Assembly: GCA_044355075.1 (NCBI GenBank)
Contig: JBIKYV010000003.1
Coordinates: 7,324-71,323, forward strand
Source: Prosthecobacter sp.
GTDB lineage: Bacteria > Verrucomicrobiota > Verrucomicrobiia > Verrucomicrobiales > Verrucomicrobiaceae
Length of the DNA: 64,000 bases
Reading direction: 5' to 3'
Both the position numbers and the translations under genes were made by a program. The first letter of the stretch is position 1. Every line of letters starts with the position of its first letter. Of the stretch, positions 45,972 to 63,700 are shown in pieces. Under the pieces are notes generated by a model. It searched no databases and was not told the origin of the DNA. It saw only the letters and a program-made list of their open reading frames with translations.

Positions 45972-46061
45972 AGATGCTCGCATCTCCTCCTGCATTGCAG
46001 CCGTTTTCTCAGGAAAGCGGTAGCTAAAGGTTGAGCATCGGCATGCATGGGCTATGCGTAA

Positions 46062-46077
46062 GCGTTCGTTTGAACGC
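46062..46077. promoter_or_regulatory. Putative LexA (SOS) box
   Basis: Perfect dyad GCGTTC-gttt-GAACGC directly before ATG 46078. It fits the GTTC-N4-GAAC core reported for Verrucomicrobia LexA. Confidence 0.75.
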
Positions 46078-47385
46078 ATGGAGCTAACCCGCAAACTTGA
46101 AATCTTGGCTGACGCCGCCAAATACGATGCCTCGTGTGCCAGCTCTGGCGCGGCACGGAAAGATTCGCGAGACGGCAAAGGCATTGGCTCCACCGGCGGC
46201 ATGGGCATCTGCCACAGTTACACGCCGGATGGACGTTGTGTGTCTCTGCTGAAGGTGCTGCTCACCAACGCCTGCCTTTACGACTGCCACTACTGCATTA
46301 ACCGCCGCTCCAGCAATGTGCAGCGTGCTCGCTTCACCCCCGAGGAGGTCGTGCAGCTCACGCTGGATTTCTACAAGCGGAACTACATCGAAGGCCTCTT
46401 TCTTAGCAGCGGCATCGTGCGCAGCGCGGACTTCACCATGGAGCAGGTCATCGAGGTCGCCCGCCAGCTGCGCGAGGTTCATCACTTCCGGGGTTACATC
46501 CACCTGAAGACCATCCCGGAAGCCTCGCAGGAACTCATCGAAAAAGCCGGGCGCTACGCTGACCGCATCAGCATCAATGTCGAGCTGCCCACCCAGGAGG
46601 GCTTGGATAAGCTGGCCCCGGAGAAAAACCTCGCCAACACCAAGCAGGCCATGGGCGGCATCCGCGCGAAGATCGAGGAAACCGTCTTCGCGCGCCAGGA
46701 GGCCAGGAAGATCAAAAACACCCCGCGCGCCAAAGCTCCTGTCTTTGCCACCGGCCAAAGTACCCAGATGATCGTGGGAGCCGATGAATCCAGCGACGCG
46801 CTGGTGCTCGCCCGAGCGGATGAGCTTTACCGCGATTACCGCCTGCGCCGCGTCTATTACAGCGGCTTCAGCCCCATCCCCGAGCCCAGCGTGCTGCTGC
46901 CCATCAAGCCGCCGCCGCTTGTCCGCGAGCACCGCCTCTACCAGGCCGACTGGCTTCTGCGCTTCTATGGCTTTGACGTCGGTGAACTGCTGCCCAAGGA
47001 AGATCCGAACCTCGATCTGGAGCTCGATCCCAAGCTCGCCTGGGCGCTGAGGAACCGGCATCTCTTCCCTGTCGATATCAACCGTGCGCCGCGTGAGCTG
47101 CTCTGGCGCATCCCAGGTCTCGGTACGGTGAATGTGGAACGCATCATCTCGGCCCGTCGTCATGCACGTCTCAGGTTGATTGACCTGCAACGCATGAGGG
47201 TCAGTTTGAAAAAAGTCCTGCCTTTCATGATCGCAGCGGATCACTCCCCGCGCGTCGCTGTGCTGGAAGATACAAACCTGCGTCATCGCTTTCTCCCCGC
47301 ACCGCGTCAGCTTGAACTTAACTTCGACGTGCCGCCTCCTGCCACCCGACAGGATGCACTCATGGCTCTGAGCGGTCAGCTATGA
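46078..47385 (+). CDS. Putative DNA modification/repair radical SAM protein (TIGR03916-type)
   Basis: KLEILADAAKYDASC, ICHSYTPDGRC, CLYDCHYC, NYIEGLFLSSG, REHRLYQADWLLRFYGF and HhH LLWRIPGLG. Confidence 0.92.
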   Translation: MELTRKLEILADAAKYDASCASSGAARKDSRDGKGIGSTGGMGICHSYTPDGRCVSLLKVLLTNACLYDCHYCINRRSSNVQRARFTPEEVVQLTLDFYKRNYIEGLFLSSGIVRSADFTMEQVIEVARQLREVHHFRGYIHLKTIPEASQELIEKAGRYADRISINVELPTQEGLDKLAPEKNLANTKQAMGGIRAKIEETVFARQEARKIKNTPRAKAPVFATGQSTQMIVGADESSDALVLARADELYRDYRLRRVYYSGFSPIPEPSVLLPIKPPPLVREHRLYQADWLLRFYGFDVGELLPKEDPNLDLELDPKLAWALRNRHLFPVDINRAPRELLWRIPGLGTVNVERIISARRHARLRLIDLQRMRVSLKKVLPFMIAADHSPRVAVLEDTNLRHRFLPAPRQLELNFDVPPPATRQDALMALSGQL

Positions 47386-48248
47386 TCACGGCCACCATCC
47401 AGCCAACCTTTTCCGCCTGGCGCAGCCAAGCCCGCGAGCTGCTCCAGCGCGGCATTCGCCCCGAGGATGTGGATTGGTGCGATGCCACCCTGACCCCAGC
47501 ACTGCTCATGGAGGAGCCCGCCGTTTACGCCGCCCGGCCGCCCACGGATATCAAGGTGCCTGCTGAGTTCCTGAACCTGGCCACCAGTGTCTGCGCGCAC
47601 ACGGACGCACGCCGCTTCGCCATCCTTTACCGGCTGCTCTACCGGCTCACCTGGGGTGGCGAGCGCCATCTGCTCAGCCATCCCGCCGACCTCGACACGC
47701 GCCAGTGCCAAGTCTGGGCCAAGGCGATCGGGCGCGACATCCATAAAATGCATGCCTTTGTCCGCTTCCGGCTCATCGGGGTCGATGAAGCCACGCAACG
47801 CGAGCAGTTCGTCGCTTGGTTTGAGCCCGAATACCGCATTGTCCAGCTCGCCACCCCATTTTTCCGCAAGCGCTTCGCCAGCATGGTCTGGTCCATTTTG
47901 ACCCCGCATGAATGCGCCCATTGGGATGGCGAGGCGTTGACTTTCAGCCCCGGCGTTTCGAAAAGCGAAGTGCCCGACGCCGACGCGCACGACGACCTCT
48001 GGCGCACCTACTACCGCAGCATCTTCAATCCCGCGCGGCTGAAGGTGCAGGCCATGCAGTCCGAGATGCCACAGAAGTATTGGAAAAACCTGCCCGAGGC
48101 CCAGATCATCCACGAACTGATCTCCAGCAGCGGCGAGCGCATGAAACAAATGATTGCCACACCCGAACGCCCTGTGAAGCCCATGCCAGACAACGCGTAT
48201 CTGAAAAAGCTGCATGACAGAAGCAGGAGTGCGGACGGGGAAGGTTGA
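47382..48248 (+). CDS. DUF4130 / TIGR03915-type putative DNA repair protein, no UDG domain
   Basis: DIHKMHAFVRF, WFEPEY, FFRKRF, WSILTP, WRTYYRSIFNPARL and EMPQKYWKNLPEA. ATGA overlap with the radical SAM stop. Confidence 0.9.
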   Translation: MITATIQPTFSAWRSQARELLQRGIRPEDVDWCDATLTPALLMEEPAVYAARPPTDIKVPAEFLNLATSVCAHTDARRFAILYRLLYRLTWGGERHLLSHPADLDTRQCQVWAKAIGRDIHKMHAFVRFRLIGVDEATQREQFVAWFEPEYRIVQLATPFFRKRFASMVWSILTPHECAHWDGEALTFSPGVSKSEVPDADAHDDLWRTYYRSIFNPARLKVQAMQSEMPQKYWKNLPEAQIIHELISSSGERMKQMIATPERPVKPMPDNAYLKKLHDRSRSADGEG

Positions 48249-60423: not shown

Positions 60424-60730
60424 ATTCTTAAGGGGTTCAATTTCAACTAGCTAGATGCCTCGATCAATGAGCTTAATCAATGCATGGCGTTCATGCTATC
60501 TTGAAAAGTAAATGTTCGTTCAAACAATCACTCATCAATGCTAATGCATAAGTCGATCGTTATCCATGATGGGAATAGCTCTCAAAGGATTGGAATGATG
60601 CGAAAATGAGAGAGCTTGATGAGCACTTTGAAAGGTCTCTATATTTGTATTGCCATAGAAGTCTCTTTCAGTCAGAATCTAAAAAAAAGCATTTACACCG
60701 CATTTACAAAACCAAAACCCACCACCCATT

Positions 60731-63700
60731 ATGAAACTCAAAAAAGACCTTTTTGTGGTCGGCCTTTCAGCTCTAGCCGCTGCTTTGTTTTTGGGTGTCT
60801 TTTTACAGACGCCGTCTCCACAGCCTGAACATAAAACAGACTCGTCTAACTCCAAGAAAGTAACCAAAGTTGATGATCTGCAGACCCCTGAACATGTTCT
60901 AAGGTCAGAAAGCAAAACACCGAAGATTGGCCCAGCGGCTAAGAATCAAGTGGCAACACATCGATTGAGTTTCAGGCTTTTTACCGCAGATGTATCGAAA
61001 AAAGAAATATCTCAAGATAAGCAAGCGTCTCACTTAAGGAAGTTAAATAAAGCTAAACCGTTGGGTCAAAGGTTTATCGATCTTTCCTCAATTCCTAATT
61101 TAAGTCAATTTCACGAGGGTATGCGGTTAGGTATACCGACCAGTGATGGGTATTCTTATAACGCGGTCGTGAATTTAGTGAAAATAGGTAAATCAGGCTC
61201 CATTCGAGTCGGGGGTAGTCTGGAAAATAGTAAAGGCGGGTTCGCTTTGTCGCAGGGGCCAGATGGATTCCGAGGAATGGTTAGAATACCCGAAAACAAT
61301 CGGACATTCATGATTGAGCCGGGTGATGGCGACAAACTAGTCATGGTCGAATACAATCTGGGCGATTGGGAATGTCTGGGAATGCCACGTTTGCAATTGA
61401 ATGCAGGAGGCGGAGCTTTCCAAAGTGCGGCTTCATTAACAGCGCCAGTCATTCCAGAGTTTGATACAAAGCCCGATGCTACATCTGTAATTTATATCGA
61501 CTTTGATGGGGAATTGGTGACGGATTCCATTTGGAACAACGGCAATGAGATTGATGCAGCTCCAGCGATTTACGCGGGCAGACCACTTACCAATGCGCAC
61601 ATCCAAAGTGTTATCGAAAGCGTGGCGCAGGACTTCGTTAACTTTAATGTTTCCATCACGACCATTGAGTCGCGTTACACTAATGCGCCAGTAGGACAAA
61701 GAACTCGCTGCATAGTGACTCCTACAGACCCAATTACGCAGGGCACAGCTGGTGGTGTAGCCTTTCTTGATAGCTGGCATCTTGCGGGTTCAACGTATGA
61801 TGATGATGTCCCATGTTGGTGCTTTGGCATGTATGAGCCTGTGAATATGGCACAGGTGATTTCCCACGAAGTGGGACATACTTTAGGGCTAAGTCATGAC
61901 GGTCGCGGTAATAATGCCTATTATGCGGGTCATGGTAATGCAGCTTCATCGTGGGCGCCAATCATGGGTGTTTCTTATGACAGAAGGCTAACCCAATGGT
62001 CTATTGGAGATTACAATGGCGCTACTAACACAGAGGACGACATAGCGATCATTGCCAGTGAGCTTAACAAAGTTGGATTTGAGTCCGACGATATCCCTGG
62101 TGGTTTCGGAAATTGGGTTTCATTAGCCTCATCTTCGGACGGTTTGAAACTAGCCGCAGTTGCGCGTGATGGCCGTATCTACCTTTCAACCAATCGGGGT
62201 GTGTCCTGGGCACCCGCTGAGAAATCTAGGAATTGGAGTTCTATCACTTGTTCATCAGATGGAACAAAGCTTTTTGCCACTGAGTTGGCAGGAAAGATCC
62301 ATATTTCTAGCGATTCCGGACTAACATGGAACGCCGTAGAGCAAATTCGGGATTGGGTAGCCATCACCAGCTCTGCTGATGGACAGAGATTGGTTGCGGC
62401 TGTGTCTGGAGGAAACCTATTTACATCCACCGACGCTGGGCTGACTTGGACGGAGAGAACTAGTGCCTCATGGCCTGTAACACTAACCGCCCGCATTTGG
62501 AGTGGATTATCTTCTTCTGCTGATGGCACTAAAATTGTGGCTACCATCGATGGCGCACGCATTTACACTTCTTCTGACTCAGGATCTACATGGACGGCCA
62601 GAGATGCGACACGTAGATGGTCATCCGTTGCATCTTCAGCAGATGGCGTGAACCTAGTGGCTACAGTGACGAATGGTGGACTAATCTATCGTTCAGCAGA
62701 TTCAGGGGCTACATGGACGGTCATAAATAACGTTGCGAGAGATTGGTGCTCTGTAGCTTGCAGTTCAGATGGGTCCATTCTTTATGCAGCGGATTTCAAT
62801 GGTTTGATCTATAAATCCATTAACGCCGGTGTTAACTGGGCCAATCAAGAAACGGCTAGACAATGGGCAGTACTTCGGAGTTCCTCAAATGGCACTAACG
62901 TGATCGCTGCGGTGAGTAACGGCATCATTGTCACGACGGGCAATGGTGGAACTTCGTGGACACCGTCTATCATGTCTGACACAACTGCTGGTGCGACAAT
63001 CAATGGAAGCTTTAATGCCACAGGTTCACTGCACAGCATCAATGATGAAGATTGGTTCCAATTTAATCACTCCATCGGCGCTTCGAATCAAAACGGCAGT
63101 TTCAATTTTAGCGTCTCACCCAATGGATCAAATTCGAATTTGGATTTAAACCTAGCTATCTACAATAGCAATGGTGTCCTTGTCGGAGGTTCTGCATTGG
63201 CTGGACTGGTTGCTAATTCATCGCCTGTCGATAGTCGTGGCGCGAGTGTTTTCGGTAATTTGCCGAGCGGTGTTTATTACCTTGTTGTTAGGGGCGGTAG
63301 TGAGCCGTTTAACGTTGCCGGCGGAAATATAACAGCTGGATTTTCCAGTTATGGAGCGCAGGGTAACTACCGAATCACAGGCTTCTTCACACCTGTGCCT
63401 GCAATTCCTCAAATTCAGGTGCAGCCACAAAGTGTTGCTGCTGTTGATGGAAGCACGATAACTTTATCTGTTACAGCCATTGGTTCCGGAGGTATAACGT
63501 ACCAGTGGCTTAAAAATGGTAATTTGATGAATGGTGAGCGCCAACGCACGCTTCGTTTGACAAATATGGGTGCTGTTGGGAATGAGAAAAATGGCACTTA
63601 CACGGTTGTCGTTGGCAATGCGACAAATCCTAGCCTTCAGGTCATCAGTGCACCTGCTTTGGTAACGGTGAATTATCGTCCAAGGATTCTCGGGATTACA

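Follow-up and report, generated by a model that had tools for sequence, protein, structure and literature searches.

A radical SAM–DUF4130 operon without UdgX and its probable LexA operator in Prosthecobacter

We describe here a two-gene operon in a 64,000-nucleotide stretch of DNA (the window; GenBank assembly GCA_044355075.1, contig JBIKYV010000003.1, positions 7,324 to 71,323) from a lake Prosthecobacter of the family Verrucomicrobiaceae. Its first gene encodes a radical S-adenosylmethionine (SAM) protein and its second a DUF4130 protein, and a perfect dyad, GCGTTC-GTTT-GAACGC, precedes the first gene (Table 1). We think it likely that the operon is translationally coupled and repressed by the housekeeping LexA, and that the two proteins act as a complex. 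The operon itself is nothing out of the ordinary within the widespread TIGR03916/TIGR03915 DNA-damage-response family. The dyad is probably a retained LexA operator of lower affinity than the canonical boxes, an assignment that draws on its position and its preserved symmetry and not on its sequence match.

The dyad and LexA control in the genus

We place the start of the radical SAM gene at the ATG at 46078. An in-frame ATG at 46054 gives the longest open reading frame (ORF, 443 aa), but this ATG is missing in the closest ortholog, and nearly all homologs begin M-[ED]-L-x-R-K-L-E-I-L-A-D-A-A-K-Y-D; the true start is thus the downstream one. The public gene call P0121 uses the non-conserved ATG, eight codons early, which would add 46054-46077 to the gene and so put the LexA-like dyad within the coding sequence. 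With the start at 46078 the last base of the dyad lies directly before the ATG, as an earlier note on this DNA, made from the letters alone, had described.

That note had also given TGTTC-N4-GAACA as the LexA motif of Verrucomicrobia, and this motif, derived here from the lexA promoters of the genus, is real in the present genome. Perfect boxes lie upstream of lexA (TGTTCGAGCGAACA, contig C271, 8 nt 5′ of the ATG), recA (TGTTCTAGTGAACA, 20 nt upstream) and uvrA (TGTTCTTTTGAACA, 50 nt upstream), and a box with one mismatch (TGTTCATTTGAACT) precedes a Y-family polymerase gene by 3 nt, counted from the start of its longest ORF. The full motif is kept in 29 of 30 genus lexA promoters, with T1 present in all 30 and A14 invariant.

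How the dyad fits into this picture is seen when the upstream sequences of 30 orthologous radical SAM genes (protein identity 73-100%) are aligned. An NGTTC-N4-GAA[CT] dyad is present in 25 of them, ending 0-7 nt before the ATG in 22 promoters, where it reads (T/C)GTTC-N4-GAA(C/T), and lying 45-82 nt upstream in three, and its majority form is ACTGTTC-N4-GAACT(C). These ortholog dyads are conserved in their arms and free to vary in their spacers, a pattern that marks a site bound by protein. Within the window's own clade (the three closest genomes) all 12 arm positions are invariant, while the spacer varies at two of its four bases and the 84 nt upstream at 36% of their positions. The same symmetric form has arisen separately in genomes G026 and G027 (GGCGTTC-AAAA-GAACGCC), whose sisters G011 and G016 keep ATGTTC-ATAA-GAACAT, and this second origin fits selection for a palindrome bound by a dimer. 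From these promoter comparisons LexA control of the radical SAM operon is well supported genus-wide, and the functional case for the present dyad comes from its positional orthology to canonical boxes together with the clade-invariant arms and the recurrence in G026 and G027.

The 16-mer is unique in the 4.18-Mb assembly. Its GTTC-N4-GAAC core occurs 44 times, where about 61 copies are expected from base composition, and so is not over-represented.

Several observations weigh against LexA acting at this particular site. The dyad matches only 8 of the 10 specified positions of the motif, and its symmetric changes, T1 to C and A14 to G, alter operator positions that are well conserved in the lexA promoters of the genus. 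A position-specific scoring matrix (PSSM) trained on sites independent of the radical SAM promoter (the genus lexA boxes and the genome's own recA, uvrA and polymerase boxes) gives the dyad 7.2 bits, where the lowest-scoring training site has 15.5 bits, and 278 14-mers of the genome equal or exceed the dyad. When the canonical sites of the radical SAM orthologs are added, the dyad reaches 10.3 bits, the training minimum is 11.2 bits, and 98 sites do as well as the dyad or better. Sequence alone would not call the dyad a LexA box. Five of the 30 ortholog promoters have no dyad within 100 nt, and a LexA box of its own was sought and rejected for the DUF4130 gene in the two genomes (G036 and G013) where it is unlinked from the radical SAM gene, no canonical box being found upstream. 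The sequencing runs that contain the locus are lake or freshwater metagenomes and consist of DNA only. The LexA repression suggested in the earlier note stands in part: the boxes at lexA, recA, uvrA and the polymerase gene bear out its motif, the genome-wide PSSM scan that it had proposed as a check leaves the dyad below threshold, and what speaks for the operon's own site is that it sits where its orthologs carry canonical boxes and has kept its symmetry.

The low score, which is under that of every training site, would also be expected if the dyad descended from a LexA box that no longer binds LexA usefully, the operon being constitutive or otherwise controlled in this clade. Both outermost positions have changed, positions from which no genus lexA promoter that we examined departs, and the five orthologs without a box indicate that loss of LexA control does happen in the genus. 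A perfect 6+6 palindrome is not expected under neutral drift, however; decay of that kind does not produce symmetric double changes that keep the palindrome perfect, and neither the invariance of the arms beside a variable spacer and flanks nor the independent appearance of the symmetric variant in G026 and G027 fits it. We therefore regard operator decay as unlikely and prefer a retained LexA operator.

A different role, that of an RNA hairpin, depends on where transcription begins. Upstream of the dyad, the own clade has a conserved block, GGTTGAGCATCG, which is a possible promoter element; its hexamer TTGAGC lies at -47 to -42. If the hexamer serves as a -35 element, it would put the transcription start within the dyad, and the mRNA would have a leader about 12 nt long. 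A promoter scan of the locus called no sigma-70 consensus promoter. The leaderless mRNA considered in the earlier note is not favoured. The one argument for it is that a Shine-Dalgarno (SD) sequence would have no room, which says little here because SD-like motifs are not enriched genome-wide: with crude longest-ORF gene calls in this assembly (G000), SD-like tetramers precede 7.3% of genes, and the figure at a control position is 9.8%. These frequencies suggest that initiation in this genome is largely SD-independent.

In a transcribed leader the dyad could serve mainly as a hairpin that limits initiation at the AUG, instead of or beside LexA repression. The stem-loop would stand directly 5′ of the AUG, the GCGTTC forms have predicted stabilities of -8.6 to -12.0 kcal/mol where the 4-bp canonical forms have mostly -2 to -6, and in the stem the T-to-C change is compensated by the A-to-G change. 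In the sister clade L013-L016 (alignment A1), moreover, an inverted repeat UCCAUG...CAUGGA encloses the LexA box as an outer stem and pairs with the start-codon region, and L016, which has a GTG start, has a matching CACG upstream. This compensatory change is a hint that a leader is transcribed in these genomes, and the repeat there may be a translation-occluding hairpin, but it is a single event. The arms, on the other hand, agree with the LexA motif and keep their sequence instead of covarying, and in most orthologs (ACTGTTC..GAACTC) the outer pair would be a T.T mismatch. A chiefly RNA-level role for the dyad thus seems quite improbable to us. Nor is the dyad a plausible terminator of the upstream gene, a candidate that we rejected, as no terminator was called there and no T-run follows the dyad.

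Least probable of all, and very unlikely, is that a second regulator such as the LexA paralog of this genome (LexA2) reads the GCGTTC half-site. LexA2 is 39% identical to the housekeeping LexA (LexA1), differs from it in the putative recognition helix and has no TGTTC box upstream. It is, however, unique to this assembly among the 37 genus genomes (our own and 36 congeners) and absent from G010, G023, G026 and G027, all four of which have the variant operator, and no second GCGTTC-N4-GAACGC or CGTTC-N4-GAACG site exists in the genome; we have rejected it as the reader of the variant.

The LexA2 gene lies outside the window and is split over two contig ends (G000 C11:3-518, minus strand, and C32:5626-5892, minus strand). 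A CTGT-N8-CCAG sequence is present upstream of it, and it is followed by a gene for a 1052-aa protein with the methyltransferase motifs DPSCGAG and NPPW; this locus may be part of a mobile or defence element, or contamination. The Y-family (DinB/ImuB-like) polymerase gene (G000:C123:5716-7037) stands alone, with no adjacent imuA or dnaE2, and succinate dehydrogenase genes follow it.

The two proteins and the absence of UdgX

The radical SAM protein scores 569.6 bits against TIGR03916 (cut-off 343.5 bits), covering model positions 1-401 of 415, and 39.7 bits against PF04055; we take TIGR03916 to be equivalent to COG4277. Other radical SAM family models reach at most 21 bits on the protein, and the spore photoproduct lyase (SPL) model is absent from its NCBIfam matches, which were listed to E <= 0.01. 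The CxxxCxxC motif and the ATGA coupling to the DUF4130 gene that the earlier note had read from the letters are both present, the former as CLYDCHYC, whose Cys66, Cys70 and Cys73 are found in 29 of 30 diverse homologs. We considered an auxiliary Fe-S cluster formed by Cys20, Cys45 and Cys54, which are invariant in close homologs yet occur in only 13, 19 and 21 of the 30 diverse ones, respectively; judged by these alignments, the three residues are not a family feature.

The helix-hairpin-helix (HhH) tail described in the same note is a candidate element. Its PGLG hairpin is conserved, P346 and G347 being invariant and G349 being kept in 90% or more of homologs, and HHH_3 (PF12836) passes its cut-off in the fused homolog P0246, while the present protein's own HHH_3 match is weak (E=0.002, with 18.6 bits where the gathering score is 27). 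Closer to the C terminus, in the region RFLPAPRQLELNF, lies the peptide QLELNF. Among 31 close homologs its Q411 never varies, and E413, L414 and F416 are each kept in 90% or more. About 16 of the 30 diverse homologs have QLSLF, QLELF, QLDMF or QLxLxF/L at this position. The consensus for binding to the beta sliding clamp is QL[SD]LF or QLxLxL, and QLELNF resembles it; such a clamp-binding-like peptide in the radical SAM protein would point to action at the replisome. The extreme C terminus, SG[EQ]L, is also kept among close homologs.

The product of the second gene scores 197.6 bits against TIGR03915 (cut-off 112.25) and 126.3 bits against PF13566 (cut-off 27). An AlphaFold2 model of this protein has a mean predicted local distance difference test (pLDDT) score of 71, and its top Foldseek matches are DHH-family folds, led by the PAP phosphatase 8a8k (probability 0.95, E 0.03) and followed by family II pyrophosphatases and RecJ. 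These modelled resemblances agree with a preprint on a stand-alone radical SAM/DUF4130 pair from Lachnospiraceae bacterium 3-1, in which an AlphaFold3 complex has DUF4130 as the substrate-binding partner (bioRxiv 10.64898/2026.08.19.745780). The structural side nevertheless lends the functional part of our reading little help and counts to that extent against it: the DUF4130 matches are weak (E >= 0.03), and the AlphaFold2 model of the radical SAM protein, built from a shallow alignment, has a pLDDT of 52 and was rejected as unusable for assigning a function. Sequence searches against solved structures gave no match at E <= 0.01 for the radical SAM protein and chance-level matches only (E >= 0.03) for DUF4130.

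Joint action of the two proteins is supported by natural single-chain fusions. P0246, P0247 and P0249, which belong to distinct 50%-identity clusters, are radical SAM-HhH-DUF4130 proteins of 666-729 aa with no uracil-DNA glycosylase (UDG) domain, and they give Rosetta-stone support for the window's proteins acting as one unit. A further apparent fusion, in G060, was discarded; its 733-aa frame is a spurious out-of-frame extension, and the radical SAM protein there is a separate 438-aa ORF in another frame. In the two genomes with an unlinked DUF4130 gene (G036:C12:85807-86511 and G013:C2:183853-184557; loci L067 and L068), that gene is on another contig than the radical SAM gene in one and about 120 kb away from it in the other, and in both it lies about 25 kb from lexA.

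The pair lacks the UdgX-type glycosylase that accompanies it elsewhere. As the earlier note had observed, the DUF4130 protein ends without a UDG domain and no UDG gene is adjacent; its tail aligns by eye with the linker that precedes the UDG domain in the DUF4130-UdgX fusion of G040, and it stops within that linker. A search with TIGR03914 (cut-off 189.95 bits) found no UdgX-type gene above the cut-off in the 92.9%-complete assembly. The only UDG-superfamily genes in it encode a SMUG-like protein and, on another contig than the operon, a family-4 UDG. The latter gives the assembly's best TIGR03914 score, 125.8 bits and so below the cut-off, against 142.9 bits for TIGR00758; it has GEAPG and no KRRIH-type loop, and there is no GTTC-N4-GAAC core anywhere on its contig. 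None of the 37 genus genomes has a TIGR03914 match above the cut-off, although the radical SAM gene is present in 27 of the 36 congeners. The alternative that the earlier note had allowed for, a canonical system split by a udgX elsewhere in the genome, is thus not what is found.

The same arrangement is frequent outside the genus. The best 120 DUF4130 homologs are all 260-319 aa long and have PF13566 alone. In an even sample of the phylum DUF4130 occurs in 13 of 201 genomes, with most of the open frames shorter than 400 aa, and by this sample the stand-alone protein is more frequent in the phylum than any other form. The control genome of Bacteroides thetaiotaomicron likewise has a TIGR03915 match and no TIGR03914 match. 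Fusions do occur in the same order, in another family, where G040 and G058 have a 519-aa DUF4130-UdgX protein with GEQPG and RRRKH that scores 257-264 bits against TIGR03914. The genus-wide absence, the homolog lengths, the phylum sample, the control genome, the stand-alone Lachnospiraceae pair and the UDG-less fusions together show that the form without UDG is common and self-sufficient, and not peculiar to the window.

Proposed mechanism and relation to known systems

In the mechanism that we propose, the housekeeping LexA would bind the dyad at -16 to -1 relative to the start codon, and DNA damage would free the promoter through RecA-stimulated self-cleavage of LexA. The symmetric outermost changes (TGTTC to CGTTC and GAACA to GAACG), shared by this genome and its two closest relatives, probably lower the affinity, which would make induction leakier or earlier. 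The radical SAM and DUF4130 proteins would form one complex, as suggested by the ATGA overlap, the natural fusions without UDG and the AlphaFold3 prediction for the stand-alone pair. Within it the radical SAM subunit would be tethered to DNA through its HhH element, and possibly to the sliding clamp through QLELNF, and may generate a 5′-deoxyadenosyl radical to process a replication-blocking lesion, and DUF4130, with a degenerate DHH/RecJ-like fold, may position the nucleic-acid substrate. UdgX would then be an optional accessory, one that the whole genus lacks.

A bolder form of this proposal, which we offer tentatively and think somewhat doubtful, is that the two proteins are the core of an autonomous, clamp-tethered radical repair enzyme with no need of UdgX, whose operator has been retuned in this lineage by the symmetric T1C/A14G changes, with their two independent origins, to give it an induction threshold of its own, possibly with a start-proximal RNA hairpin in addition. 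The genus-wide absence of UdgX, the radical SAM-DUF4130 fusions and the recurrent QLxLF tail are what suggest such an autonomous core.

To our knowledge, the TIGR03916/TIGR03915 pair is among the most widespread damage-inducible gene sets without known chemistry. The characterised SOS-linked radical SAM enzyme of DNA repair is SplB, the spore photoproduct lyase, which is damage-regulated in several phyla and reverses its lesion directly by radical chemistry. Our protein is likewise a radical SAM protein connected with DNA, but it belongs to another family and differs in its putative HhH element, in the clamp-motif-like tail and in being paired with DUF4130 as its obligate partner. We found no biochemical function for either the radical SAM or the DUF4130 protein in the searchable literature, in agreement with the earlier note's statement that none was established; what there is on DUF4130 includes a gene-neighbourhood note (PMC3765255).

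A claim of novelty does not hold, since SOS control of the pair is already published and the UDG-less layout is common. According to PMC8565304, which cites Erill et al. (2016, Front Mol Biosci 3:33) for Verrucomicrobia, the COG4277-COG1573 operon, with genes for a radical SAM and a UDG-type protein, is reported to be under SOS regulation in Verrucomicrobia, Alphaproteobacteria and Bacteroidetes. The present operon shares with that one the radical SAM family, the phylum, the TGTTC-N4-GAACA motif family and a gene directly behind the box; its differences are a partner without the COG1573/UdgX domain and an operator that is the symmetric C/G variant. With the DUF4130-UdgX cassettes of G040, G058 and the Caulobacter vibrioides control genome the operon has its DUF4130 domain and its gene order in common, and the radical SAM protein is orthologous to that of G040 with 73% identity, but the G040 DUF4130 protein runs on into UdgX, whereas the Prosthecobacter protein ends in the linker.

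The closest parallels in architecture are the stand-alone pairs of Lachnospiraceae bacterium 3-1, Bacteroides thetaiotaomicron and Acinetobacter, which have the same two genes and no UDG. For the first of these a heterodimer is predicted, and for the last there is regulation by the damage response, expression of the Acinetobacter radical SAM/TIGR03915 pair being dependent on the DNA-damage activator DdaA (PMC12392091). The regulators themselves differ: a WYL-type activator in Moraxellaceae, a non-canonical LexA in Bacteroidetes and, in the present case, a LexA of the Verrucomicrobia type.

Nothing here would surprise a specialist in SOS regulons, and the locus sharpens the picture of the pair rather than changing it. 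Prosthecobacter is a genus of culturable aerobes that keeps the pair without UdgX, so the two-protein core can be studied alone in it, and the operator variant is a simple natural experiment on the positions that a Verrucomicrobia LexA needs.

Features of the locus

The host assembly is a metagenome-assembled genome of 301 contigs, and the names of its proteins' homologs agree in pointing to Prosthecobacter. Within the window the operon is flanked by genes unrelated to it, a nagB-like gene upstream and a gene for a PVC-type haem-binding protein downstream.

Table 1. Features of the radical SAM–DUF4130 operon and its upstream region, in window coordinates.
Feature	Position	Strand	Basis
Conserved block GGTTGAGCATCG, with -35-like hexamer TTGAGC at 46031-46036	46029..46040	+	Invariant in the three closest intergenic regions
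Perfect 6+6 dyad GCGTTC-GTTT-GAACGC, candidate variant LexA operator cGTTC-N4-GAACg	46062..46077	.	Sequence, positional orthology
Radical SAM gene	46078..47385	+	TIGR03916 and PF04055 matches; ortholog N-termini fix the start
CX3CX2C [4Fe-4S]/SAM cluster motif, CLYDCHYC, residues 66-73	46273..46296	+	Sequence
Helix-hairpin-helix DNA-binding element (putative), with PGLG hairpin	47071..47160	+	PF12836 HHH_3, PGLG conservation
QLELNF, clamp-binding-like peptide near the C terminus, residues 411-416	47308..47325	+	Homolog conservation
ATGA start/stop overlap joining the two genes	47382..47385	+	Sequence
Stand-alone DUF4130/TIGR03915 gene, 288 aa	47382..48248	+	PF13566 and TIGR03915 matches

Elsewhere in the window, at 60513-60526 (C190:67836), there is a LexA-like box with one mismatch, TGTTCGTTCAAACA, 204 nt upstream of a very long ORF that starts at 60731; this box is probably a chance occurrence.

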